Part shown: in pieces, positions 1 through 32,019 of the stretch | Layout: every line of letters begins with the position of its first letter | How positions within the stretch are numbered: the first letter of the stretch is position 1 | The notes under the pieces: model-generated | What the model saw: only the letters and a program-made list of their open reading frames with translations | What the model was told of the DNA's origin: nothing | Databases searched by the model: none | Program-made: the position numbers and the translations under genes | Source of the DNA: Thermoanaerobaculia bacterium | GTDB taxonomy: Bacteria > Acidobacteriota > Thermoanaerobaculia > Multivoradales > UBA5704 | Assembly (NCBI GenBank): GCA_035996875.1 | Contig: DASYJD010000043.1 | Location: forward strand, 6,724 to 70,723 | DNA length: 64,000 nucleotides | Direction: 5' to 3'

Positions 1-237
1 GCAGCCGCGAGTCTGGAGGTCGAGGAACTTGCAGATGCTGCCGTAGGTCTCGTCCGGCTGGTGGCGTAGGATGACCTCGCCAGGCTCGTCGCCTTTCTTG
101 GTAAACTTCCGCGCGACCGTTTCGGAAGGAAGACCCAGGTGCTTGGCCAGGCGGACTATGTCCTCCTCCTGCACCGGGATTCGCGGGTAGGAGCAGCAGT
201 AGGCAGGGCAGCGGTTGCAGTTGTAGAAGTTTGCCAT
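1..237 (-). CDS. YkgJ-family Cys-cluster (CxxCxxCC) protein, 5' part only; continues past the window start
   Basis: Minus-strand ATG at 237 reads MANFYNCNRCPAYCCSYPRIPVQEEDIVRLAKHLG, in frame to position 1. Confidence 0.45.
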   Translation of the reverse strand, partial: MANFYNCNRCPAYCCSYPRIPVQEEDIVRLAKHLGLPSETVARKFTKKGDEPGEVILRHQPDETYGSICKFLDLQTRGC

Positions 238-297
238 GGTCAGGATTCTCTCGCGCAGTGTAGCCGTTTCGATGGAAATGTCTACCTTGGAGGTGCC

Positions 298-2277
298 ATG
301 AAGGGAAAGCTCGCTCTCATCCTACTCACCGCGCTGCTCACCGTCCCCTCGTCGAGGGCGGCCGAGCCGGCCGCGAACGTGCTGCCCGTGCCGGAGACCA
401 TCGCCGCGCAGGGCGTGCCGCCCATTCCCCTCGAGCATCTCGAGGGCCTGCTCCCCTACGAGAATATCCGCGGCGCGCTCGTCATGGACTGGCACCCGCG
501 AGAGCGCCGGCTGCTGATCCGCACCCGCTTCGCGGAAAGCCCGCAGCTTCACGAGGTGTCGACGCCGCTCGGCGCCCGCACTCAGATCACCTTCTTCCGC
601 GAGCCGGTGAGCACCGGCGCCTACCGGCCGGGACTCCCCGCCGAGATGCTGTATTCGATCGACGAGGGTGGCGCCGAAAACTTCCAGCTCTTCCTGCTCG
701 ACCGCAAGACCGGCCGGGCGAAGAGGCTTTCGGACGGCAAGCACCGCTACGTCTCTCCTCTCTGGTCACACGACGGCACGTGGCTGGCCTATGCGAGCAA
801 TGCCCGCAACGGCCGCGACATGGACGTCTACGTGGCCAATCCCTCCACAACGTCCAGCGAACGCCGGCTGACCGAGGCCCAGGGCTCGTGGGAGCCCCTC
901 GACTGGAGCCCGGATGGCCGCCGTCTCCTGGTCACAGAGCAAGTATCCGCCAACGAATCGTATCTCTACTGGCTGGATGTGGTGAGCGGCGAGCGCCACA
1001 CCCTCACGCCTCGCAACGCCAGTAAAACCGACCCGACCGTGTCCTACCAGGGCGGCAAATGGTCGGCGGACGGCAAATGGGTCTACGTGGCGAGCGACAA
1101 GGACTCCGAGTTTCTGCGGTTGGTGCGCCTCGAAGCCGCCACCGGCGCCGCCACAGTGATCTCGGGTGACGTGCCCTGGGACGTGGAAGACTTCGATCGC
1201 TCGGAGGACGGCAAGCTGCTGGCGTATCTGGTGAACGAGGACGGCTTCAGCCGCCTCCACCTGGTCGAGACCGCGACGGGCAAATCGCTCCCGCTTCCTG
1301 ACCTGCCGGCCGGCAGCGCCAACGGGCTGAAGTTCCGCCCCGGCTCGCACGAGCTCGCTTTCGCCGTGAGCTGGGCCCGGTCGTCGTCGGACGTCTATAC
1401 CTACGACTCGGACTCGCACCGGCTCGACCGCTGGACGGCGAGCGAGGTGGGCGGGCTCGATCCCGAAACGTTCGCGCTTCCGAAGCTCGTCCGCTATCCG
1501 ACCTTCGATATGGATTCGAAGGGAGCTCGCCGGACCATTCCGGCCTTCGTCTACCTGCCGCCACAGGATCGTTTTTCAGGCAAGCGGCCGGTGGTGATCA
1601 ACATCCACGGCGGCCCGGAGGGTCAGTCCCGTCCCAGCTTTCTGGGCAGCAACAACTACATCCTCAACGAGCTCGGCGTGGCGGTCATCGTGCCCAACGT
1701 CCGCGGCTCTACCGGGTATGGCAAGAGCTGGCTGAAGCTGGACAACAGCAAGCTGCGCGAGGACTCGGTAAAGGATATCGGCGCACTATTGGACTGGATC
1801 GCCACCCAGCCGAATCTGGACGCATCGCACGTGATGGTGACTGGCGGCTCCTACGGCGGCTACATGGTGCTCGCAACGTTGACACACTACAGCGACCGGC
1901 TGAGCTGTGCGTGGGAGTCGGTCGGCATCAGCAACTTCGTGACGTTCCTGGAGAACACGCAGGAGTATCGCCGCGACCTGCGCCGGGTGGAGTACGGCGA
2001 CGAGCGCGATGCGGACATGCGGGCCTTCCTCGAAGGAATCGCGCCGGTGAATCACGCGGACCGCATCACCAAGCCGCTGATGATCAGCCAGGGCGCGAAC
2101 GATCCGCGAGTGCCCCTCCACGAGTCCGACCAGATCGCCGCCGCCGTCCGCGCCAAGGGAGTGCCGGTCTGGTATCTCGTGGCAAAGGACGAAGGCCACG
2201 GTTTCCAGAAGAAGAGCAACTCGGACTATCAGCGGGCAGTATTGCTGGAGATGATTCGGATGTTTCTATTGAAGTAG
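298..2277 (+). CDS. Secreted S9 family serine peptidase (TolB-like beta-propeller N-domain plus prolyl-oligopeptidase-type alpha/beta hydrolase)
   Basis: Track ORF 139..2277. A signal peptide MKGKLALILLTALLTVPSSRAA starts at an internal ATG at 298. Active-site Ser motif GGSYGGYM with downstream D and H. Confidence 0.8.
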   Translation: MKGKLALILLTALLTVPSSRAAEPAANVLPVPETIAAQGVPPIPLEHLEGLLPYENIRGALVMDWHPRERRLLIRTRFAESPQLHEVSTPLGARTQITFFREPVSTGAYRPGLPAEMLYSIDEGGAENFQLFLLDRKTGRAKRLSDGKHRYVSPLWSHDGTWLAYASNARNGRDMDVYVANPSTTSSERRLTEAQGSWEPLDWSPDGRRLLVTEQVSANESYLYWLDVVSGERHTLTPRNASKTDPTVSYQGGKWSADGKWVYVASDKDSEFLRLVRLEAATGAATVISGDVPWDVEDFDRSEDGKLLAYLVNEDGFSRLHLVETATGKSLPLPDLPAGSANGLKFRPGSHELAFAVSWARSSSDVYTYDSDSHRLDRWTASEVGGLDPETFALPKLVRYPTFDMDSKGARRTIPAFVYLPPQDRFSGKRPVVINIHGGPEGQSRPSFLGSNNYILNELGVAVIVPNVRGSTGYGKSWLKLDNSKLREDSVKDIGALLDWIATQPNLDASHVMVTGGSYGGYMVLATLTHYSDRLSCAWESVGISNFVTFLENTQEYRRDLRRVEYGDERDADMRAFLEGIAPVNHADRITKPLMISQGANDPRVPLHESDQIAAAVRAKGVPVWYLVAKDEGHGFQKKSNSDYQRAVLLEMIRMFLLK

Positions 2278-4536
2278 GCCTTTGGAGCAGGCCAGAGCCG
2301 CCTGCCCAAGACTTAGGCCGCCGTCGTTGGCCGGTACCTCGCGGTTACACCACACCGCGAGGGAAGTCGTGCGCAGTAGGTCCACCAGTCGATCGAGGAG
2401 CAGGCGGTTCTGAAACACGCCTCCGGAGAGGACGACGGTGTCAAGCCTCTCGCGCGCTACGATCTCCAATACCGCACGAGCAACTCCCGCGGCCAATCCA
2501 TGATGGAAAGCGCGGGCGACATCGGGCGCGGGGCGCCCAGCCCTCCGATCTTCGATCACGGCTGCGATCAGCGGGCGAAAATCCAGCTCCTTCCCATTGA
2601 ACGGCAACGGATAGTCCTCGACGTCCTGTCGCCCGCCACGCGCCTGATGCTCCAACCAGATCGCGGCCTGCCCCTCGAAGCTGATCTCGCGCGTGAAGCC
2701 GAGCAGGGCGGCGGCGGTATCAAAGAGGCGCCCCGCCGAGGTGGTGGGAAACACTCGCAGGTTCTTTTCGATCAATTCCCGCGCCTGGATGTAACGGTGA
2801 GGAAAGTTGAAGGGCGCGGCGGTCAGGTCGGGAAGATCATCGAGCCCGGCCAGGAATCCGGCCGCCGCCTGCACGGGATGGCGCGCTGCCGCGTCTCCTC
2901 CGGGAAGGACAGCAGGACTCAGATGGGCCACGCGCTCGAAACCTTTCTCGACGCTGCCGATGAAAAATTCGCCACCCCAGATGGCGCCGTCGTCGCCGTA
3001 GCCGGTGCCGTCGAAGGCTACGCCCACGACGCGGCGGTCCAAGGCGCTGTGCTCGGCGAGGGCGCTCGCCACGTGAGCACGGTGATGCTGCACCGCCACG
3101 ATCTCGGCGGCGTCCAGGGCTTGGGCGAAGAGCGATGAGACGTACTCGGGATGTTGATCGTGAACGATCAACAACTCGTTCCAGTCTACCTCGTACATGG
3201 CGGTAAGGTCGCGCACCGTCTCCTGGAACGCTCGGAAGGCGTCGTAATTGCCAAGGTCTCCCAGATGCTGGCTGACGAAGGCCTCGCCTCCGACCACGAG
3301 GGTTATGGTGTTCTTAAGATCTCCGCCCAACGCAAGGATAGGACGATCCGACGGCAGCTTTGCCACGGCGCCGGGAGCGTAGCCGCGCGCCCGCCGCAGA
3401 ACTGCGGGACCCAGCGTGGTCACGGTGCAGACGGAGTCGTCCACCCGGCGGGCGATAGGACGTTGGCCGATCAGGAAGGCATCGGTGATGCCGGAGAGAC
3501 GCTCCAATGCCTCATCGTCCTCATAAGCGATAGGCTCGCTCGAACGGTTGGCGCTGGTCATCACCAGAACGTCCGGCGCTCCGTAGGCGAAGAGGAGATA
3601 ATGCAGGGGCGCATAAGGGAGCATCACTCCCAGATCGTCGTTCCCCGGCGCCACTCCTTCTAAAGACTCTTTGGCAGGCGCCAGCACCACGGGCCGCTCC
3701 AGCGAAGTGAGGAGCGACTCGGCCTCGGAGGACAGCTCGACTAGATCGCGGGCAACGTCGAGATCTCGCGTCATCAACGCGAACGGTTTTTCCTTGCGGA
3801 ACTTGCGCTCGCGCAGAGCGTTTACCGCGGCCGGATTCCGCGCGTCGCAGGCCAGGTGATAGCCGCCGAGCCCCTTGACGGCGAGGATCTCTCCGTCGCC
3901 GAGCCGGCGCGCCGCTTCGCGGATCGCCGCCTCACCCGTCTCCTCCCCAAGGTGGAAGTGCGGTCCGCAATCCCGACAGGCCACGGGCTGGGCATGGAAG
4001 CGGCGATCCAGCGGGTCGGCGTACTCCGCGGCGCAGCGCGGGCACATCGGCCAGTCCTTCATCGTCGTGCGCGGCCGGTCGTACGGCAATCCGAGGATGA
4101 TCGAATAGCGCGGGCCGCAATCCGTGCAATTGATATACGGATAGCCCCGGCGGCGATCCGTGGCTGAGAAAAGCTCGGCGAGACAGCTCGCACACACCGG
4201 GAGATCGGGGGAGATCCGGACCGTGGGAGCGATGCCGCCGGCCTCGCTGTCACGGATCTCGAATCCGGCGAAGCCTTCAGGCTTGACGTCGGCGAGATCG
4301 ATCTCCGCGATGCGCGATGCAGGCGGTGGTTGGGTTTGGAGATCTTGGACGAAACGATCGACGGCCGGAGCTTCGCCTTCGACATGAATTTGCACACCCT
4401 CGCCGGCGTTGAGCACCCAGCCGCGTAGTCCGTGGGAGTGGGCGAGGCGGTAGACGAAGGGCCGGAACCCCACTCCCTGAACCACGCCGTGAATACGGAT
4501 CGTTTGGGCTTTATTCAAGGCGCCGCCACGATACAA
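2266..4536 (-). CDS. hypF: [NiFe]-hydrogenase maturation carbamoyltransferase HypF
   Basis: 756 aa. Acylphosphatase N-domain (QGVGFRPFVYRLA), two Zn-finger CxxC pairs, YrdC-like and Kae1-like domains. TTG start. Confidence 0.9.
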   Translation of the reverse strand: MYRGGALNKAQTIRIHGVVQGVGFRPFVYRLAHSHGLRGWVLNAGEGVQIHVEGEAPAVDRFVQDLQTQPPPASRIAEIDLADVKPEGFAGFEIRDSEAGGIAPTVRISPDLPVCASCLAELFSATDRRRGYPYINCTDCGPRYSIILGLPYDRPRTTMKDWPMCPRCAAEYADPLDRRFHAQPVACRDCGPHFHLGEETGEAAIREAARRLGDGEILAVKGLGGYHLACDARNPAAVNALRERKFRKEKPFALMTRDLDVARDLVELSSEAESLLTSLERPVVLAPAKESLEGVAPGNDDLGVMLPYAPLHYLLFAYGAPDVLVMTSANRSSEPIAYEDDEALERLSGITDAFLIGQRPIARRVDDSVCTVTTLGPAVLRRARGYAPGAVAKLPSDRPILALGGDLKNTITLVVGGEAFVSQHLGDLGNYDAFRAFQETVRDLTAMYEVDWNELLIVHDQHPEYVSSLFAQALDAAEIVAVQHHRAHVASALAEHSALDRRVVGVAFDGTGYGDDGAIWGGEFFIGSVEKGFERVAHLSPAVLPGGDAAARHPVQAAAGFLAGLDDLPDLTAAPFNFPHRYIQARELIEKNLRVFPTTSAGRLFDTAAALLGFTREISFEGQAAIWLEHQARGGRQDVEDYPLPFNGKELDFRPLIAAVIEDRRAGRPAPDVARAFHHGLAAGVARAVLEIVARERLDTVVLSGGVFQNRLLLDRLVDLLRTTSLAVWCNREVPANDGGLSLGQAALACSKGLLQ

Positions 4537-4751
4537 CCCCGCCCCTGCCAGCCGATCTGGACGACCTTGCCGTCCTCAACGAGAACCGGCACGGTGCGCT
4601 GGCCCGTCAAGGCGACCATGCGCGCCAAGGCTTCGCCGTCCTCCTCGACGTCGTGCTCGTCGAATTCTTTCTCATCCCACTCCAGTTGCTCGCGTAGCTC
4701 CGTGGTGTACGGACAGCTCTTCGTGCCGTAAAGCTCCAATCGCTGACTCAA
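4515..4751 (-). CDS. Small glutaredoxin/thioredoxin-fold protein (about 78 aa)
   Basis: C-terminal 78 codons of track ORF 4515..5441: SQRLELYGTKSCPYTTELREQL...VPVLVEDGKVV. Probable TTG start overlapping the stop of the upstream SIS gene. The rest of the track ORF is a GC-rich frame artefact. Confidence 0.45.
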   Translation of the reverse strand: MSQRLELYGTKSCPYTTELREQLEWDEKEFDEHDVEEDGEALARMVALTGQRTVPVLVEDGKVVQIGWQGRGCIVAAP

Positions 4752-5905
4752 GCAGCTTCCTCCTCGACCAACAGCTCGAGCATGACGTGATACATCGAGG
4801 CCTGGATCTCCTGGATTCGGGGAACGTAATCGCACGGCACGACCAGCGGCAGCTCCGCGAGACCCCGCCGCACCGTCTCGCCGCCGTCGTAGCCAAGCAG
4901 CGCCACGGTGAGTAGGCCCCGCTTCTTCGCCTCCTCCAGCGCCGCGAGAATATTGGACGAGCCGCCGCTGGTGGAGATGGCGATGGCCACGTCGTGCGGC
5001 CGGGCCTGGGCGATGAGCTGGCGCAAGAAGACCGGCTCGGAGCCGAGATCGTTGGCGAGCGCGCTCACGATGGCCGGCTCCATGGCCAGCGACACCGCAG
5101 GAATCGGTCGGAAAGCTTTCAGCGGCGCAACGCAGTCGAGCGCCCAGTCGTTGGCGTCGGTGGCCGAGCCGCCATTGCCGAACAGGACGAGCTTGCCGCC
5201 TTGGGCGACCCGCTTGCGGATTGCCGCCACCGCGCTCGCGATCTTCTCCGCTTGATCGCGGGCGACCTCCTCGCGCAGCCGCTCGTCGTCCCGCGCCTTC
5301 ATCTGGATGGACGCCGCGACCTCGGCGATCAGGCTGTCCGTGTCCTGCTTCTGCTTGCCGAGATAGGGATAGAGGAAGCTCGACTTCCCCACCTCGTGTC
5401 CCAGCGCGCCGTGCTCGAAGAAGACGTGCACCGTCTCCCACAGCGTGTGGTAGACGATCTCGATCAGCTCCTGGTGGATATACGGATCGGGCGACGGCGA
5501 GGCGAATGAGAAGGTCTGAGCGCCACGGGTCCGCGCAAGGCCCAAAGCCTCAGAGATCTCGGTGTCCCCCGCCGGAGGCCCGAAGCCCATCACCATGTCG
5601 TCGGGCAGTACGAGGGCCGCGAGCCACTCCCGGAAGAAAAGCGAAAGATCGAGGGCTGGCAGCGCCCGCTTGCCGACGATTACCGGATGGACGAACTCGA
5701 CGGAGACGTGCTGGGCATCGGTCGCGTAATGGCCGCGCCCGAACACCAGCAGCCGACCGCCGCGCAGGAAGCGCCCGGCCATGTCCTGGCAAGCCCGCGC
5801 CAAGCGGTCGCTTTCGGCGGGGAAAAAGGTTGAGGAGATTCGATTGCGTTCGAGGAGGCGCTGGGCGACGAAGGTGGCTTGGGCGGTGGGGGTGATCGTG
5901 GACAT
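4748..5905 (-). CDS. Tandem SIS-domain protein (GmhA/DiaA-like sugar-phosphate isomerase fold)
   Basis: Two SIS domains (LVFGRGHYATDAQHV...; LVLFGNGGSATDANDW...ISTSGGSSNIL). Start trimmed to ATG at 5905 (MSTITPTAQ); the longer track ORF runs into a repeat element. Confidence 0.6.
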   Translation of the reverse strand: MSTITPTAQATFVAQRLLERNRISSTFFPAESDRLARACQDMAGRFLRGGRLLVFGRGHYATDAQHVSVEFVHPVIVGKRALPALDLSLFFREWLAALVLPDDMVMGFGPPAGDTEISEALGLARTRGAQTFSFASPSPDPYIHQELIEIVYHTLWETVHVFFEHGALGHEVGKSSFLYPYLGKQKQDTDSLIAEVAASIQMKARDDERLREEVARDQAEKIASAVAAIRKRVAQGGKLVLFGNGGSATDANDWALDCVAPLKAFRPIPAVSLAMEPAIVSALANDLGSEPVFLRQLIAQARPHDVAIAISTSGGSSNILAALEEAKKRGLLTVALLGYDGGETVRRGLAELPLVVPCDYVPRIQEIQASMYHVMLELLVEEEAA

Positions 5906-5985
5906 CGGGACTAAGGTAACAGATTGCGTGGACGGCAGTATGGGCGCTGACTTTGACGTCTCTTCAGAGCGCCCCCGTCCAAGAC

Positions 5986-6049
5986 CCTCATCACCCCGGC
6001 CCTCTTCTACCGACCCCCTCCGCCCCCTCACCGGGAGAAGAGGGAGAAC
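5986..6049. repeat. GC-rich structured repeat unit (copy A); stem ccctcttct/agaagaggg with a ~25-nt loop
   Basis: Near-identical to 20612..20675. Internal inverted repeat ccctcttct...agaagaggg. Confidence 0.7.
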
Positions 6050-6141
6050 AGCAGGAAGGCTCCAAAACCGGGTTCCCTCGCCCGGTAGCGGGAGGGCCCT
6101 CCACCCCCGCCCCACCCGATCCGCATAAACGTCCCCAACGT

Positions 6142-6185
6142 AGAGACGCCCACAGGGTAGCGCGAGCTACCCCGTGGGGCGTCTC
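6142..6185. repeat. REP-like palindromic hairpin, copy 1 (GAGACGCCCCACGGGG..CCCCGTGGGGCGTCTC family)
   Basis: Imperfect palindrome. The same element is perfect at 9088..9122 and recurs at 23653..23686. Confidence 0.75.
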
Positions 6186-6266
6186 AGGTGCGGCCATGAC
6201 GGTCCCGCTCTCCACGACCTGCCCGCGTGACGATAGAATTGACTTAAAACTCTCCGAAATCAAACC

Positions 6267-8693
6267 ATGCCCACTCACCCCAAGCCTCCAATCACGGGCG
6301 GCTCGCACACGCTGCCCTTCGACAAGCTCGCGCCCCTCGAGTTCGAGCGCCTCTGCCTGTGGCTCGTGCAGCGCGAGGGCTACTCCCGGATCGAACACCT
6401 CGGCGAAGCAGGAAGCGAAGGCGGACGCGACGTGGTGGCCTGGAAGGACGGGCTTCGCTTCGTCTTCCAATGCAAGCGGGTGCAGTCGTTCACTGCGTCC
6501 CACGCCCGCAAGGAGATCGAGAAGCTCCGCCGCTTGCCGGTAGAGGATCAACCCCACGAGTTGGTGTTCGTGGTGTCTCGGGCGGTCAGCGCCGACACGC
6601 GCAACGCCATCCGGAAGGAGTGGGGCGACGAGGCGACCTGCCACTTCTGGAGCGGCAACGAGCTTGACGAGCGGGTCAAGCGCCATCCGGGTCTCTCCGA
6701 AGAGTTCTTTCAGTTGCCGTCCGTGAGGACGCCAACAGCTTTCCGGCACAACCTCCCCTTCTCCTCCCTCGGGCACCTCTTCCAGGGCCGGGAAGAGATG
6801 ATCACGGTCCTGCGCGAGAAGCTCACCCAAACGCCCGCCGGGCGGGCAACGGCCATCGCCGGCAAGGCCGTCCATGGCCTGGGCGGGGTGGGCAAGACGC
6901 GGCTGGCCGTGGAGTATGCGTGGCGGCACGCGGACGATTACACCGCGCTGCTGTTCGTGGGGGCAGGCTCCCCCGCTGATCTGCGGCGCAACCTCGCGGC
7001 GCTCTGCGAGCGGCCTGTGCTCGACCTGCCGGAGCAGGAAGCGCCAGAGGAGGAGGTCCGCGAGGTGGCCGTCCTGCGCTGGCTTGGAGAACAACCGGGG
7101 TGGCTGTTGATCCTCGACAACGTCGACGCGGAAGACGCTGCGGCGGCGGTGAATGTCCTGGTCACCCGCCTCCACGGCGACCACGTGCTCCTGACCGGCC
7201 GGCTCGCCCGCTGGAGCGCCGAGGTCGAGCCACTCGAGCTCGACGTGTTGGCCGAGGACGCCGCTGCTGAATTCCTGCTCGCCCGCACGAAGGGGCGGAG
7301 GAGGCCGACCCAGGAGGACGATCGCCACGCCATCGCGCTCGCTCGCGAGCTTGGCTTTCTGCCCCTGGCCCTGGAACAGGCCGGTGCCTACATCGCAGAG
7401 CGTCGCCTCACCCTCGCCGCCTATCTGGAAGAGTGGCAGTCACGGCACGATCAGATTTTGACATGGTTCGATCCGCGGGTGAGTCACTATCCAGCGAGTG
7501 TCGCCGTAACCTGGCAGACTTCCGTCGAGCGCCTCTCCGCCCCGGCCCGGCGCCTGCTCGAACGGCTGGCCTGGCTGGGACCGGAGCCGATTCCTGAATC
7601 GCTTCTGAAAGTGCCCGTCCCCCATTCTCCCGAGGAACCGGACAGTCGCGACGCTCTCGTGGAACTGGCGACCTACTCCCTGGTGACCCGCGACGGCGAA
7701 ACGCCGACCTTCACCGTTCACCGGCTTGTGCAGGACGTCACCCGTCGCAGTCTGAGGAATGGCTCCGACAAAGGAGCCTTGACGGAGACTCTGGACGAGG
7801 CGCTCCACTGGATAGACGACGCCTTCGTGGGACATCCTCAGGATGTCCGCATTTGGCCGACCCTTGATCCCCTCGCCTCCCATGCCCACTCGGTGGCGAT
7901 GAATGCTGATGCTGTTGGAATCGCCGATCCCACCGCTCGCCTGATGAACCAACTGGGCAGTCTGCTTCATGCCAAGTCCTTGTTTCCTGAGGCCGAGCCG
8001 TTGATGCGGCGCGTGGTGACGATCGTCGAAAGCAGCCTCGGTGAAGATCACCCCAATGTCGCGACGACCCTCAACAACCTGGCGCAATTACTCAAGGCCA
8101 CGAACCGTCTCAGCGAGGCCGAGCCGCTGATGCGACGTGCGCTTGCAATCGATGAGAAAAACTTCGGGGCGGAACATCCCGACATCGCCCTAGACCTCAA
8201 CAACTTGGCCGCATTGCTCCAGGCCACGAACTGTTTCAGAGAGGCTGAGCAACTAATGCGGCGTGCGCTCGAAATAGACGAGAAGAGCTTCGGGACGGAA
8301 CATACCAAGGTCGCCATCCGCCTCAACAACCTTGCGCAGTTGCTCCAAGCCACGAACTATCTCAGCGAAGCCGAGCCGCTGATGCGGCGTGTGGTGACGA
8401 TCTTCGAAAGCAGTCTCGGTGAAGATCACCCCAACGTCGCGGCGGCCCTCAACAATCTGGCAGCATTGCTCCATGCCACGAACCGTCTCGGCGAGGCCGA
8501 GCCGCTAATGCGCCGCCACCTGGTCATCTTCCTCGATTTCACGCACCGCAACGGGCATGAGCATCCATATTTGCGGGCAGCCTTCGATAACTATCGGTAT
8601 CTGCTCCGGAAGATGGGCAAGTCCGACACCGAGATTGAGGGGGCGATTACAACCCTGGTAGGGTCTCCAGGAATGAGGCGTCTGGCTCTATGA
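6267..8693 (+). CDS. STAND NTPase with N-terminal Mrr-like PD-(D/E)xK nuclease, NB-ARC ATPase and C-terminal TPR array (candidate antiphage Avs/NLR-like protein)
   Basis: N-terminus has GGRDVVAWKDG...FVFQCKR, an Mrr_cat-type D...QxK motif. Walker A GLGGVGKTRLA, Walker B WLLILDNVD. About five 42-aa TPR repeats (LNNLAQLL...AEPLMRR). Confidence 0.8.
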   Translation: MPTHPKPPITGGSHTLPFDKLAPLEFERLCLWLVQREGYSRIEHLGEAGSEGGRDVVAWKDGLRFVFQCKRVQSFTASHARKEIEKLRRLPVEDQPHELVFVVSRAVSADTRNAIRKEWGDEATCHFWSGNELDERVKRHPGLSEEFFQLPSVRTPTAFRHNLPFSSLGHLFQGREEMITVLREKLTQTPAGRATAIAGKAVHGLGGVGKTRLAVEYAWRHADDYTALLFVGAGSPADLRRNLAALCERPVLDLPEQEAPEEEVREVAVLRWLGEQPGWLLILDNVDAEDAAAAVNVLVTRLHGDHVLLTGRLARWSAEVEPLELDVLAEDAAAEFLLARTKGRRRPTQEDDRHAIALARELGFLPLALEQAGAYIAERRLTLAAYLEEWQSRHDQILTWFDPRVSHYPASVAVTWQTSVERLSAPARRLLERLAWLGPEPIPESLLKVPVPHSPEEPDSRDALVELATYSLVTRDGETPTFTVHRLVQDVTRRSLRNGSDKGALTETLDEALHWIDDAFVGHPQDVRIWPTLDPLASHAHSVAMNADAVGIADPTARLMNQLGSLLHAKSLFPEAEPLMRRVVTIVESSLGEDHPNVATTLNNLAQLLKATNRLSEAEPLMRRALAIDEKNFGAEHPDIALDLNNLAALLQATNCFREAEQLMRRALEIDEKSFGTEHTKVAIRLNNLAQLLQATNYLSEAEPLMRRVVTIFESSLGEDHPNVAAALNNLAALLHATNRLGEAEPLMRRHLVIFLDFTHRNGHEHPYLRAAFDNYRYLLRKMGKSDTEIEGAITTLVGSPGMRRLAL
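7960..8560 (+). repeat. Near-identical ~126-bp DNA repeats encoding the TPR units of the STAND sensor domain
   Basis: 7984..8058 and 8365..8439 are >90% identical (gaggccgagccg.tgatgcggcg.gtggtgacgatc.tcgaaagcag.ctcggtgaagatcacccc). Spurious antisense ORFs in the track (8048..8353, 8253..8474) reflect this. Confidence 0.7.
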
Positions 8694-8756
8694 GCGCTCC
8701 TGCCACCTACCGGGCAGCCGCGTCTCCTCGGTGTTCGGGTTCCGTCCCGAGTGGGC

Positions 8757-8992
8757 GACCCTCGCCCCAGTGGGGCAACGTCTCCCCCGAATAGGGGAAG
8801 GCCTCCCCCAGTGGGGCAAGCCGTCGCCCAAGAAGGGAGAGGGTCCGTCCGAGTTGGGCAAGGCCTCGGCCCAGTTGGGCAACGCCTCCCCCAAGAAGGG
8901 GGAGACCTCGCCCCAGTTGGGCGAGGCTCGCCCCACTGGGGAAAGACCTCGCCCCACTGGGGAAAGCCTTCCCCCCGTTCGCCCAGCCCTTG
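8757..8992. repeat. Degenerate 21-bp tandem repeat array (~11 units), each with a mini-palindrome ccccagtgggg/ccccactgggg
   Basis: Units such as ctcgccccagtggggcaacgt and ctcccccagtggggcaagccg. Open in several frames on both strands (heptad LPQWGKP-like in +), so coding status is unresolved. Confidence 0.7.
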
Positions 8993-9087
8993 TTCCGGCC
9001 GGGTCCGGTCCTCATCCCGCTCGTGCAATCCGCAACGTAGACTGCCCGAGTAGGTCTCCTGACGCCTAGGAAGAACTCCCCGCCTCG

Positions 9088-9122
9088 GAGACGCCCCACG
9101 GGGTTCCCCGTGGGGCGTCTCT
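9088..9122. repeat. REP-like palindromic hairpin, copy 2 (perfect 16-bp arms, 2-nt loop)
   Basis: ggagacgccccacggggttccccgtggggcgtctc. Confidence 0.8.
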
Positions 9123-9330
9123 ACAGAGGGTACCCTTCCGGCACGGTATGCGCCGGCCTGAAGGGCCGTGATTCCTCAGCGAAGGGTACCGCCCTGGGAA
9201 GCGGAGATGGCAGACAGGACATCGAGACCGAATATCGCGCCCCGTTGGGGCGCACGGACGGCGGGCCGATCGGAACCCAGCCCGTTGGGCTGGGCTTAGG
9301 AATCCCGGACCTTCGGCCCGGGCCAACTTG

Positions 9331-10401
9331 TCAGCAGATCCGCGGCAACGGGTCCCCCACCAGCATGTCCACCACCCGCGTCCCGCCATAGGAAGCCGTG
9401 GCGAGCACGGTTCGCCGGGGCTGCTCGCGCACCTCACCGATGATCACGGCCTCTCCACCGCCGGGGACGGCGCGCACGGCGGCCAAGGCCGCGTCGGCGA
9501 GCTCGGGGGCCACCACGGCCAAGAATTGACCCTCGTTGGCAATGTGCAGAGGATCGAGGCCCAGCAGCTCGCAGGCGCCTCGCACAGCCTCTCTCACGGG
9601 AATCTGCTCCTCCTGGAGCACGATGCCGAGACCGCTGTCCCGCGCCAGCTCGTTGAGGGAGGTGGCGACCCCGCCTCGCGTGGGGTCTCGCATCCAGCGC
9701 AGGCCGGGCGCGGCGACATCGAGGATCGCTTCCACGAAGGGATAGACCGAGCGCGTATCCGAGCTCAGATCGGCTTCGAGATCGATCTCGCCCCGCGCCA
9801 GGAGAATCGTGATGCCGTGATCGCCGATGGGGCCGGAGAGGATCACCTGATCGCCGGGGCGCACGGACCGCGCAGACAGCCGAGCCCGCGGGTCCGCACG
9901 ACCGACGCCGGCGGTGGTGATGTACAGGCCGTCCGCCTTGCCGTGCTCGACGACCTTCGTGTCGCCGCCAACGATCTGGACTCCGGCCCGCTGCGCCGCC
10001 TCGGCGATTGCCCGCAGCTCGGCTTCCAGAGTCTCGGTGGCGATTCCCTCTTCGATCACGAAAGTGAGGAGCAGGGCGAGCGGTCTGGCCGCCGAGACCG
10101 CGAGGTCGTTCACCGTGCCGTTGACCGCCAGTTCGCCGATCGAGCCGCCGGGAAAACGCAACGGACGCACCACGAAGCTGTCGGCGGTCATCGCGATGCG
10201 GGCGCCGTCCACCTCCAGATAGGCGGCATCAGCGAGGGGGGCCAGAAGCGGCCCACCGAGGAGCGGCACGATCAACCCTTCAATCAGCCGCCGGCTGGCC
10301 TTGCCCCCGGCGCCATGGGACATCTCGATGCGGGCGTCACGAAAGCGGACCCGAGGGAGAGACTGAGCGTCCCCGACGGCCTCAGCCTCGGCGGTCTTCA
10401 T
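9331..10401 (-). CDS. hypE: Hydrogenase maturation protein HypE (carbamoyl dehydratase)
   Basis: AIR-synthase-related fold. N-terminal ...IEMSHGAGGKA. C-terminal PRIC, the conserved HypE Cys tail. Start trimmed to ATG at 10401, in an ATGA overlap with the hypD stop. Confidence 0.85.
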   Translation of the reverse strand: MKTAEAEAVGDAQSLPRVRFRDARIEMSHGAGGKASRRLIEGLIVPLLGGPLLAPLADAAYLEVDGARIAMTADSFVVRPLRFPGGSIGELAVNGTVNDLAVSAARPLALLLTFVIEEGIATETLEAELRAIAEAAQRAGVQIVGGDTKVVEHGKADGLYITTAGVGRADPRARLSARSVRPGDQVILSGPIGDHGITILLARGEIDLEADLSSDTRSVYPFVEAILDVAAPGLRWMRDPTRGGVATSLNELARDSGLGIVLQEEQIPVREAVRGACELLGLDPLHIANEGQFLAVVAPELADAALAAVRAVPGGGEAVIIGEVREQPRRTVLATASYGGTRVVDMLVGDPLPRIC

Positions 10402-11528
10402 CTTTCGAGGCTCTCCGCCGCGCCGGCCATCGCCATCCGGTGCACGTAGTTGTAATAAGCGGCGCAAGCTCCCTCGGAGGAGACCATGAGCGCGCCCACC
10501 GGCCGCTCGGGGGTGCACTCGGTGCCGAAAAGCTTGCACTGCGGCGGCTTGAGGACGCCCTTGAGCACCTCACCGCACTGCGCCGCCTTGGGATCGGTCA
10601 CCCGGATGCCCGGAACGTCGAAGCGGCGCTCGGAGTCCCACTCCGCGAATTCATCGCGCAGCTTGAGTGCCGACTGCGAGATGAAGCCGAGACCGCGCCA
10701 CTCGAAGTACGGCCGCAGCTCGAACACCTCTTCCAGCACACGCAGCGCCGGCAGATTTCCCTCCCACGGCACCACCCGCGCATACTGGTTCTCGACCTCG
10801 GACCGGCCTTCCGCGAGCTGGCGCAGGATCATCACCAGCGATTGCAGGATGTCCAGCGGCTCGAACCCCGAGACCACGATCGGCTTGCCGTAATCCTGGG
10901 TGATGAACTCATAAGGGCGGCAGCCAATGACGGTCGAGACGTGGCCGGGCCCTACGAAGGCGTCCAGACGCATGTCCGGCGAGTCCAGGATGGCGCGGAT
11001 GGCAGGGATGATGGTCACGTGGTTGCAGAAGACGGAGAAGTTGTCGAGGCCGAGCTGGCGCGCCTTGAGGAGCGTCAGCGCCGTCGACGGCGCCGTCGTC
11101 TCGAAGCCAATGGCGAAGAAGACGACGTGCTTGCCGGGGTTGTTCTGCGCCAGCTTGATCGCGTCGAGCGGCGAGTAGACCATGCGGATCTCGGCGCCCC
11201 GCGCCTTGTGCTCCAGCGGGCTCCCCTTGGTGCCGGGCACCCGCATGACGTCGCCGAAAGCGGTGAAGACGACGCCCGGCAACTCGGCGAGCGTCAGGCC
11301 GTCGTCGGTGCGGCCCATCGGCAGCACGCACACCGGGCAGCCGGGGCCGTGGATGAGCTCAACGTTCTCCGGCAGCAATCCTTCCAGGCCGAAGCGGTAG
11401 ATGGCGTGGGTGTGGCCGCCGCACACCTCCATGATCCGGTAGTGGCGGCCGGGCCGCGCCAGCCGGCGGATCTCGTCGGCCGCCTGACGGATGAGCTTCG
11501 GATCGCGGAACTCGTCGACGTACTTCAT
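10398..11528 (-). CDS. hypD: Hydrogenase maturation protein HypD
   Basis: CGGHTHA, GPGCPVC and CPVC motifs. Confidence 0.9.
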   Translation of the reverse strand: MKYVDEFRDPKLIRQAADEIRRLARPGRHYRIMEVCGGHTHAIYRFGLEGLLPENVELIHGPGCPVCVLPMGRTDDGLTLAELPGVVFTAFGDVMRVPGTKGSPLEHKARGAEIRMVYSPLDAIKLAQNNPGKHVVFFAIGFETTAPSTALTLLKARQLGLDNFSVFCNHVTIIPAIRAILDSPDMRLDAFVGPGHVSTVIGCRPYEFITQDYGKPIVVSGFEPLDILQSLVMILRQLAEGRSEVENQYARVVPWEGNLPALRVLEEVFELRPYFEWRGLGFISQSALKLRDEFAEWDSERRFDVPGIRVTDPKAAQCGEVLKGVLKPPQCKLFGTECTPERPVGALMVSSEGACAAYYNYVHRMAMAGAAESLER

Positions 11529-23614: not shown

Positions 23615-23652
23615 CAAGGCTACTCTCCAATCACAAGGACCTACCCAAGGTA

Positions 23653-23686
23653 GAGACGCCCCGCGGGGAACCCCGTGGGGCGTCTC
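23653..23686. repeat. REP-like palindromic hairpin, copy 3
   Basis: gagacgccccgcggggaaccccgtggggcgtctc. Confidence 0.75.
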
Positions 23687-23750
23687 CGTCGCGGCGACAC
23701 CGCCCCAAAATCCCAAATCTCCCGCGGCCAACAGGAATCTTACTCTCCCT

Positions 23751-31790: not shown

Positions 31791-32019
31791 CGGGCAGGCC
31801 ACGGGTTTGTTTGTGTTTGGGGAGACAGGAGGGGGTGGAGAGGCGGCCAGGAAGGCGGCTTCGACGGAGGGTCCCCGAATCTCCCCGGCGGGGGTTGTCG
31901 TTTGATTGGGGCGGGATTGCCGCCTCGGAGACGTCCCGCCATTCCCGGGCCTGCGGAGGGGTGGCGTGGTCGGGCTGGGAGCGTCTCTACCCCTCCGGCC
32001 AGCTCTTTTGACGAGCTCC

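Follow-up and report, generated by a model that had tools for sequence, protein, structure and literature searches.

A Mrr nuclease-NB-ARC-TPR protein encoded at a split hydrogenase-maturation locus of Thermoanaerobaculia: domain architecture, flanking repeats and candidate role

The STAND gene in its locus

The window analyzed here, that is, the whole 64-kb stretch of the Thermoanaerobaculia contig DASYJD010000043.1, contains a hydrogenase-maturation locus that is interrupted by a gene for a STAND protein. This gene is an intact open reading frame (ORF) with an ATG start, the 808-aa product of which consists, from the N- to the C-terminus, of an Mrr nuclease domain, an NB-ARC NTPase, a winged helix, and a tetratricopeptide repeat (TPR) array. 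A previous reading of the window from its letters alone (henceforth the sequence-only reading) had described an 808-aa ORF with such a nuclease–NTPase–sensor layout, and both the ORF and the motifs quoted there (GGRD..FQCK, GLGGVGKT, and LLILDNVD) were recovered at the positions listed in Table 1. The identical protein is deposited at NCBI as HEV7505734.1 from a Thermoanaerobaculia (Acidobacteriota) metagenome-assembled genome, where its sole annotation is 'tetratricopeptide repeat protein', and it is also encoded on a 137-kb JGI metagenome contig. The flanking genes are those named in the sequence-only reading and all lie on the strand opposite to the STAND gene: SIS, a glutaredoxin-like gene (grx), and hypF follow on one side and hypE on the other, beyond which hypD, hypC, the gene of a HycI-type maturation protease, accessory genes, and the genes of the large and small [NiFe] hydrogenase subunits are found.

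The ratio of nonsynonymous to synonymous divergence (dN/dS) against orthologs was 0.15–0.26 in each of the three domains of the STAND protein and 0.04–0.12 in the flanking hyp genes. Thus, the STAND gene is under purifying selection, which is less tight than that acting on its housekeeping neighbours. The GC content of the gene is 0.642 compared with 0.656 for the window, and its GC content at third codon positions (GC3) is likewise native-like, for which reason a recent foreign origin was rejected.

Table 1. Positions of the STAND gene, its domains and motifs, the flanking genes and the intergenic elements in the window
Feature	Position (nt)	Residues	Strand	Basis or remark
STAND ORF	6267-8693	1-808	+	Intact, 808 aa, ATG start
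Mrr_cat PD-(D/E)xK domain	6321-6665	19-133	+	Pfam E 3.8e-11, 43.5 bits vs cut-off 21
Motif I, F26-E27	6342-6347	26-27	+	Mrr_cat
Motif II, E51-G-G-R-D55	6417-6431	51-55	+	Mrr_cat
Motif III, Q68-C-K70	6468-6476	68-70	+	Mrr_cat
NB-ARC/AP-ATPase nucleotide-binding module	6744-7520	~160-418	+	Profile, fold, motifs
Walker A, GLGGVGKT	6876-6899	204-211	+	Invariant residues
Walker B, LLILDNVD	7104-7127	280-287	+	Invariant residues
RNBS-B-like, VLLTGR		307-312	+	T310, R312 invariant
GLPL-like, GFLPLALEQAG		363-373	+	L365, A368, L369 invariant
Winged helix, Pfam DUF7779	7521-7757	419-497	+	Pfam E 5.6e-14
Sensor array, kinesin-light-chain-type 42-aa TPR units and C-terminal cap	7932-8636		+	Pfam, tandem repeats
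HypF	2266-4536		-	One flank of the STAND gene
Grx (glutaredoxin-like)	4515-4739		-	Same flank as HypF
SIS-domain gene	4748-5905		-	Same flank as HypF
HypE	9331-10401		-	Other flank of the STAND gene
Block absent from the empty hypE|SIS junction of relatives	5906-9330			3.4 kb, vs L005
Left REP	6134-6193		+	5' flank CCCAAC, GTAG head, imperfect extended hairpin 6143-6185, 3' tail AGGTGCGG
5' leader and putative promoter of the STAND gene	6186-6266		+	TAGAAT -10-like box 6234-6239
21-bp tandem array	8745-8989			~10 units, each with a CCCCAnTGGGG mini-palindrome; between stop and right hairpin
Right REP-containing unit	9017-9133		-	~100-115 nt; hairpin 9088-9121, GTAG head 9121-9124 (-)
Hairpin-rich segment right after the hypE stop	9148-9330			Common to three insert-bearing genomes, not in the empty site
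Third copy of the REP family	23644-23697		+	Repeat match, 23653-23686 within

The sequence-only reading regarded the STAND gene as an insertion into an otherwise contiguous cluster. Eighty loci around homologues of the SIS gene were fetched for comparison (they are designated by L-numbers below), 72 of which hold both hypE and SIS. The gap between these two genes has a median length of 15 nt and is at most 150 nt in 68 of the 72 loci; at the empty site of L005, whose SIS protein is 91% identical, SIS starts 9 nt past the hypE stop, and a 3.4-kb block of the window is absent. Besides the window, only L016 and L213/L214 carry the STAND gene at the hypE|SIS junction, and they do so in the same orientation; L016 is a complete Thermoanaerobaculaceae chromosome of 8.78 Mb (OY970330.1) with a 95% identical SIS protein. 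Hence the gene is an insertion, and it belongs to three insert-bearing genomes rather than to hydrogenase loci in general. Synonymous divergence (dS) was 0.25–0.39 in the N-terminal and NTPase regions of the STAND gene, similar to the 0.36–0.41 of the flanking HypD and SIS genes, and this similarity together with the native GC content indicates a single gain in an ancestor and inheritance with the locus. The STAND gene thus entered, in opposite orientation and right after the hypE stop, the genome of an ancestor shared by a few Thermoanaerobaculia, where it split the ancestral hypCDE-SIS-grx-hypF unit, and it has been passed on vertically with the locus ever since. The operon divided in this way is contiguous almost everywhere else, so that SIS-grx-hypF must now use new expression signals in these genomes. 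Since the first codons of SIS differ from those of the empty-site allele in L005, SIS-grx-hypF probably acquired a new start and a new promoter in the divergent intergenic region (5906–6266).

Other insertions were observed at the same junction. L004 (Thermoanaerobaculaceae) carries at 3049–7919 an unrelated 5.0-kb insert, which encodes a 1019-aa protein with DUF346 repeats and a DDE_5 (IS701-like) transposase split in two ORFs, L044 (Thermoanaerobaculia) contains 4.2 kb of ORFs with no recognised identity, and a different region lies between hypE and SIS in L003. The inserts of L004 and L044 indicate that the junction tolerates insertions. The possibility that it is a defence hotspot was rejected, as the inserts of L004, L044, and L003 had no PADLOC or NCBIfam defence match. 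No tRNA gene that could be an integration target was found in the window. The link of the STAND gene to the hydrogenase is positional, not functional.

Domains of the STAND protein

The N-terminal domain scored in Pfam as Mrr_cat at about twice the cut-off. The Mrr-family signature, which was defined experimentally in LlaGI and Mrr (PMC2790908), comprises F-E in motif I, D-x-G-x-D in motif II, including an extra, Mrr-specific acidic residue, and Q-x-K in motif III. All 49 homologues carrying the Mrr domain share F26, E27, G53, D55, Q68, and K70, and position 51 is occupied by E in 44 and by D in five of them, which is a conservative E-for-D change; the residue preceding D55 is R, not hydrophobic as in the family definition. 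Thus, the alignment retained the catalytic D/QxK residues on which the nuclease assignment of the sequence-only reading depended, and, motifs I–III being conserved in 49/49 homologues, the domain looks like an active nuclease. Its AlphaFold2 model (pLDDT 83.5) has an alpha-beta-beta-beta-alpha-beta topology (helix 23–36, strands 40–45, 55–60, and 63–70, helix 77–88, and strand 98–103), which was matched by Foldseek to Cdn1, EndoMS/NucS, AF1548, Can2, and the N-terminal domain of Avs4 with modest E-values of 1e-3 to 5e-2. The N-domain alone had no meaningful match in sequence searches of PDB, whether a single sequence or a profile served as the query. The PADLOC matches of the domain were restricted to REase domains, namely Aga_REase-TIR (1e-7) and those of the candidate systems PDC-M58A, PDC-S73, and PDC-S02.

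An alignment of 20 sequences covering residues 1–545 served as the basis for the NTPase profile and for calling invariant residues. G204, G206, G207, G209, K210, and T211 of Walker A as well as D284 and N285 of Walker B are invariant in this alignment, and so are H485, R486, and L487, which belong to the VHRL motif of the winged helix. VLLTGR, GFLPLALEQAG, and VHRL are presumably the equivalents of the NB-ARC RNBS-B/sensor-1 'TTR', the 'GLPL' motif, and the MHD-type histidine, respectively, and we take H485-R486-L487 to stand at the place of the NB-ARC 'MHD' histidine. When PDB was searched with the profile, the best match was AfsR (3.4e-15), followed by a wheat NLR resistosome, NRC1 (9e-8), Roq1 (2e-5), and ADR1. 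The AlphaFold2 model of residues 1–545 (pLDDT 79.4) was matched by Foldseek to CED-4 (3e-14), to Apaf-1 and NRC2 (~1e-12, with a root-mean-square deviation of ~5 A over 350–400 columns), and, within the same range of E-values, to NRC1, and more weakly to Avs4 (8dgf_B, 5.7e-8) and MalT (2e-7). The NCBIfam model NF040586, 'FxSxx-COOH system TPR protein', matched aa 172–540 with an E-value of 1e-86. Judged from the profile and the predicted fold, the NTPase is of the NB-ARC/AP-ATPase type, its closest solved relatives being AfsR, CED-4, Apaf-1, and plant NLRs. The NB-ARC/STAND P-loop ATPase of the sequence-only reading was therefore confirmed by the profile, by Foldseek, and by the invariant motifs.

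The C-terminal TPR array, which that reading had interpreted as the sensor, is built of regular repeats at both the protein and the DNA level: Pfam recognised five TPR_10/TPR_12 units between aa 556 and 760, and the coding sequence has a period of 126 nt with 3.5 tandem copies of 76% DNA identity. In a whole-protein, single-sequence search of PDB only kinesin-light-chain TPRs were matched, and a TPR structure of NLR type from Podospora was among the PDB matches. Comparison of 157 TPR units from 39 homologues revealed that ~28 positions are nearly fixed and ~12 of the 42 are hypervariable, and that the copy number differs among the proteins. The ortholog in the closest genome has diverged least in the nuclease (93% identity), more in the NTPase (83%), and most in the TPR region (67%), where it has two extra whole repeats of 42/43 aa. 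The idea that the ~450 nt following the stop codon are a remnant of a longer C-terminus was discarded, because the C-termini of the orthologs align to the end and the length difference corresponds to two internal TPR repeats.

The combination of these three parts could also be read as an NTP-dependent and modification-dependent Type IV (Mrr-like) restriction enzyme, in which the ATPase would power or license the cleavage of modified DNA and the TPRs would serve only for assembly. The signature of the nuclease (D/E-x-G-x-D and QxK), known from Mrr and LlaGI, is in line with such an enzyme. However, sequence and fold identify the NTPase as an NB-ARC switch and set it apart from McrB-type GTPases and SF2 translocases, the Pfam scan detected no N-terminal reader domain for modified DNA, and a hypervariable TPR array is characteristic of sensors of protein ligands. 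Considering these points, a restriction enzyme of this type appears highly improbable.

Intergenic elements and REP-like hairpins

The sequence-only reading placed the STAND gene exactly between two identical palindromes. Both palindromes are real, and their folding as single-stranded DNA is strong, with energies of -19.5 and -22.4 kcal/mol (z = -4.7 and -5.3), which none of 200 shuffled sequences reached. They are not identical, however. In the right hairpin, two perfectly matching 16-nt arms (16+16) enclose a 2-nt loop, while the left one shares only one identical 16-nt arm with it, the other arm being bulged and the stem lengthened by a 12-nt insert. Similarly, the gene is bracketed by the hairpins, but the spacing is loose, since 81 nt separate the left hairpin from the ATG and 394 nt the stop from the right one, the latter interval containing the 21-bp array. 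The hairpins are not the edges of the inserted DNA either, as the insert defined by comparison with L005 runs ~200 nt past each of them.

The label 'REP-like' (REP, repetitive extragenic palindrome) given to these hairpins proved appropriate. They belong to a family with the consensus (C)CCAA-N-GTAG-AGACGCCCCRCGGGG-NN-CCCCGYGGGGCGTCTC-(C/A)GNNGCGG, in which the asymmetric flanks are conserved. The window contains three canonical copies in 64 kb, all intergenic, and two of them flank the STAND gene. Matches to the family were found in at least 120 metagenome stretches; 80 of these stretches (471 kb) contained 100 matches, including 22 with a stereotyped hairpin, a 2-3-nt loop, and conserved flanks. 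It is this dispersed GTAG-head family with conserved flanks that justifies the term. The window hairpins resemble REPs and REPINs, which are elements associated with RAYT transposases, in being short, GC-rich, extragenic, preceded by GTAG, asymmetrically flanked, and dispersed over many contigs, and the GTAG head is said to be diagnostic of RAYT-type REPs. Inverted pairs, as in REPINs, also occur in this family. REPIN pairs are typically tens of nucleotides apart, whereas the inverted pair considered here is separated by 2.9 kb and encloses a gene. The same GTAGAGACG head recurs in a second hairpin family, which is represented in the window at 31978–31990 on the reverse strand (GTAGAGACG[C/T]TCCCAGCCCG...). 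In L016, two such GTAGAGACG-head ends lie in inverted orientation ~260 bp apart at 7644–7905, between the STAND gene and SIS, and resemble a REPIN or a miniature inverted-repeat transposable element (MITE).

The hairpins accompany the STAND gene to a different extent in the related genomes. The left REP and the leader are conserved in the orthologs of L016 and L213 and at a second locus in L215, and the right REP unit could be aligned in five copies from four loci. L213 has both REPs. In L016, neither the right hairpin nor the 21-bp array is present, and the STAND stop abuts the segment corresponding to 9148–9330 of the window. The second chromosomal site, represented by the mutually syntenic L215 and L216, shares contiguous REP, leader, and ORF with the window, the homology beginning at window position 6104; in L216, the gene is followed by a 21-bp-periodic array, a conserved spacer, and a ~100-nt REP unit, and the homology ends at 9133. 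This second site is further marked by genes for proteins of 131/136 aa and 417/419 aa together with those of a response regulator and a histidine kinase. In terms of dS, its copies are as distant from the window copy as are the orthologs at the hypE|SIS junction.

A conceivable explanation is that the hairpins are inverted REPs which function as the ends of a mobile cassette. Such a cassette (~6104–9133) would consist of an outward REP, the leader, the gene, the 21-bp array, which might be a cis-acting site, and an inverted REP unit, and it might have been moved between sites by a RAYT acting on a 'giant REPIN' or by REP–REP recombination. The two REPs are indeed inverted with their heads outward, they account for two of only three canonical copies in 64 kb, both are present in L213, and at the second locus the copies share REP, leader, and ORF as well as the array and the REP unit, with homology ending at the outer REP ends and dS values that equal those of the same-locus orthologs. 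Nevertheless, the insert extends beyond each REP in comparison with the empty site, the right REP is missing in L016, L215 and L216 are unlike in the order and number of their upstream REPs, a target-site duplication was not observed, and no RAYT gene turned up, none having been sought. Moreover, a STAND gene is lacking from all 80 metagenome loci with REPs (471 kb), which also led to the rejection of a general association of these REPs with STAND genes. We consequently regard functional cassette ends as unlikely, and a relocation of the REP-bounded unit by either route as a doubtful proposal. Alternatively, the hairpins may be bystander repeats that colonised the new long intergenic DNA beside the STAND gene. 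If REP-bounded relocation did take place, it would provide the first example of protein-coding cargo on REP elements, in this instance a candidate immune gene.

The leader, which contains a TAGAAT box, is ~93% identical to that of L016, and the pattern GATAGA(A/C)T...CCATG recurs 5' of homologues in other contexts, suggesting a putative promoter of the STAND gene in this segment. A scan for consensus promoters and terminators gave no promoter, and terminators were at chance level. In L213, a ~190-nt MITE-like element with its own inverted repeats (5790–5975) is situated between the REP/leader and the STAND start, and the last ~30 nt before the ATG are intact. The array downstream of the gene is formed by units with the mini-palindrome CCCCAnTGGGG, which occurs 11 times against 0.13 expected. 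A diverged array of the same 21-bp period was detected in the same relative place after the homologue P0008 at a different chromosomal locus (L216, 8675–8902), and no such array is present in L016, L213, and L215. The array could represent coding heptads, an iteron-like binding array (21 bp being two helical turns), or a REP-derived satellite. The only Rfam candidate of the insert was Acido-Lenti-1 (RF01687) at 9276–9320 (+) in the hairpin-rich segment after the hypE stop, which was rejected as sub-threshold (30.1 bits, with the gathering score at 37; E 4e-4 when 3.6 kb were searched) together with spurious miRNA matches on repeats; a 49-kb search at E <=0.01 did not recover it from L016 or L213.

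Family and candidate role of the STAND protein

Searching 5.8 billion proteins yielded 2757 matches to the STAND protein, and the Mrr head is present in 49 of the best 120. Homologues whose NTPase core is 76–80% identical carry a DUF4062 or TIR_2 N-terminus in place of Mrr_cat, and TIR or PGAP1-like lipase heads are found in more distant ones (core 43–56% identical). The presence of such varied N-domains on nearly the same core indicates that the core is a platform with exchangeable effector heads. Close homologues occur in seven unrelated neighbourhoods besides the hydrogenase locus, and in these eight contexts the gene is always solitary, with no conserved partner gene. The family, in which Mrr, TIR, DUF4062, or lipase heads are combined with one core, is large in soil Acidobacteria and experimentally unstudied.

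The sequence-only reading compared the protein with the antiviral STAND (Avs/NLR-like) proteins. The arrangement of an Mrr-like PD-(D/E)xK nuclease, a STAND NTPase, and an alpha-helical repeat sensor in one protein is indeed that of Avs4 (EcAvs4, PDB 8DGF) and Avs8A; the latter, which contains an Mrr nuclease and a P-loop NTPase, cleaves DNA upon binding of a capsid protein (PMC12236752). The model of the N-domain superposes on that of 8dgf_A with a TM-score of 0.50 and a probability of 0.97. In contrast, the NTPase is much nearer to the NB-ARC proteins CED-4, Apaf-1, NRC, and AfsR (E 1e-12 to 1e-15) than to that of Avs4, and the sensor is a short and regular 42-aa kinesin-light-chain-type array, not a large irregular TPR-like domain. 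The protein also differs from Avs4 and Avs8A in its acidobacterial host and in its position outside defence islands. The effector–NTPase–sensor layout was thus upheld, while the absence of a match to the Avs models of PADLOC-DB v2 and the NB-ARC/AP-ATPase clade of the NTPase make 'Avs' an analogy of layout and not a family assignment: the protein is NLR/Avs-like in layout and stands outside the PADLOC Avs families. It is an uncharacterised member, with a nuclease head, of the AP-ATPase-TPR group, which is known from computational surveys only and includes the bacterial 'conflict system' proteins described by Kaur et al. (2020, PMC7159879).

We consider it probable, though far from assured, that the STAND gene encodes a stand-alone, NLR-like NB-ARC/AP-ATPase switch with an immune or conflict role; our confidence is higher for the biochemical logic of the switch than for this role. 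The proposed mechanism builds on the domains, their intact motifs, the purifying selection, the swapping of effectors, and the variability of the sensor in repeat number and in single positions, as described above. In the resting state, the ADP-bound NB-ARC domain and the winged helix would keep the protein in a closed state. Binding of a ligand, which is most likely a foreign protein, to the concave face of the variable TPR array would then induce nucleotide exchange and oligomerisation, which would juxtapose the N-terminal Mrr nuclease domains and lead to DNA cleavage. As a result, the invaded cell would stop growing or die, or the invader would be destroyed. We infer the trigger, the ligand-induced oligomerisation, the activation and target of the nuclease, and the immune role by analogy with Avs4/Avs8 (PMC12236752, PMC13581612) and the AP-ATPase conflict systems (PMC7159879), and also with Apaf-1 and plant NLRs.

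Several observations weigh against this interpretation. The Pfam NB-ARC score is 22.2 bits, 1.3 under the cut-off of 23.5, the NF040586 score of 292.2 bits is just below the curated equivalog cut-off of 300, and AfsR, the closest solved relative by sequence, is a transcription factor. Neither the NTPase nor the sensor matched the PADLOC-DB v2 Avs models at E <=0.1, and the sensor is short (~270 aa), whereas a 2026 survey of STAND proteins took sensors of at least 400 aa (PMC13581612). No recognised defence system is present in any of the eight contexts of the homologues examined, a number too small for statistics, PADLOC gave no match on the other inserts of the hypE|SIS junction, and 2.9 million viral contigs yielded only five relatives, all distant (28–33% identity). 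The scarcity of viral relatives indicates that the family is not typically phage-borne, and a phage-borne family was rejected on these grounds.

The relationship to AfsR raises the question of whether the protein could be a STAND transcription regulator of the AfsR/MalT kind, whose Mrr fold would only bind DNA and which would have been recruited for hyp/hhy control. AfsR, a SARP-NB-ARC-TPR protein of Streptomyces (PDB 8K60/8JKE), possesses C-terminal TPRs and is the best match of the NB-ARC profile among solved structures, MalT is among the fold matches, and the STAND gene is divergent from SIS-grx-hypF, with which it shares a 360-nt intergenic region. However, AfsR is a transcription activator with a SARP DNA-binding N-domain, while the N-domain described here has the Mrr_cat fold with catalytic positions conserved in 49/49 homologues; no Pfam match to a SARP/OmpR-type or LuxR-type helix-turn-helix output domain was obtained, Mrr_cat being the sole domain besides the NTPase and the TPRs. 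In addition, 68 of the 72 hydrogenase loci do without the STAND gene, its close homologues live in seven other unrelated contexts, and the N-domain is exchangeable with TIR and DUF4062. There is very little chance, in our judgement, that the protein is a regulator.

A somewhat better, although still improbable, alternative is that the same switch responds to an endogenous trigger, such as a processed peptide, a stress signal, or a kin signal, and that the nuclease executes a regulated cell death, as was proposed for the AP-ATPase-TPR proteins of FxSxx-COOH or 'conflict' systems in socially complex bacteria. NF040586 is the best family-level match of the core and has the same AP-ATPase and TPR_10/12 build, the parts described for such systems comprise AP-ATPase proteins with TPRs and, independently of these, REase effectors, some of them Mrr-like (PMC7159879), and the lack of a defence-island context and the rarity of the family on viral contigs are in line with an endogenous signal. 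On the other hand, the NF040586 score does not reach the equivalog level, the protein differs from that family in its N-terminal Mrr nuclease, and no FxSxx peptide or peptide-processing, radical-SAM, vWA, or MoxR genes were found near the STAND gene, whose neighbours are hydrogenase (hyp/hhy) genes. The hypervariable positions of the sensor and the change of repeat number between close orthologs also fit a rapidly changing foreign target better.

This last feature relates the proposed immune switch to the fungal NB-ARC-TPR NLRs, which have internally conserved repeats with variable positions (Dyrka et al. 2014, PMC4986451). Similar to the STAND protein, they combine NB-ARC with near-alike 42-aa kinesin-light-chain-like TPRs (Podospora 4Y6C/4Y6W), and they show repeat-number polymorphism, a few hypervariable positions, and swappable N-terminal effectors. 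The STAND protein differs from them in being bacterial and in having an Mrr effector, which is not named among the fungal effector domains in the passages of that study considered here, and its domain-wide dN/dS is ~0.2. If the mechanism proposed above is right, the STAND protein would be a compact bacterial NLR whose NTPase shares the NB-ARC type with Apaf-1 and plant resistance proteins and whose sensor diversifies by repeat shuffling as in fungal NLRs, and it would offer a tractable bacterial model for the emergence of new specificities in regular TPR arrays. Current views are not overturned by these results. The only unusual elements are the possible REP-bounded relocation and the 21-bp array.

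Small genes of toxin–antitoxin type (PIN/VapB, UPF0175, MNT, Fic, and Uma2) are frequent neighbours of the homologues. In L216, a gene located at 9083–11128 (-) tail-to-tail with that of the STAND homologue P0008 encodes a 681-aa protein, in which a CHAT protease is fused to an FGE-sulfatase domain; bacterial conflict systems typically include this architecture as well. Upstream of a more distant homologue in L217 (4870–4975) lie five tandem 20-bp units (GTCCGATGACCTCTTCGGGC), and many copies of the palindrome GTTCCCCnnGGGGAAC precede another in L084 (7559–8000), so long repeat-rich 5' regions seem to be common in this STAND gene family.

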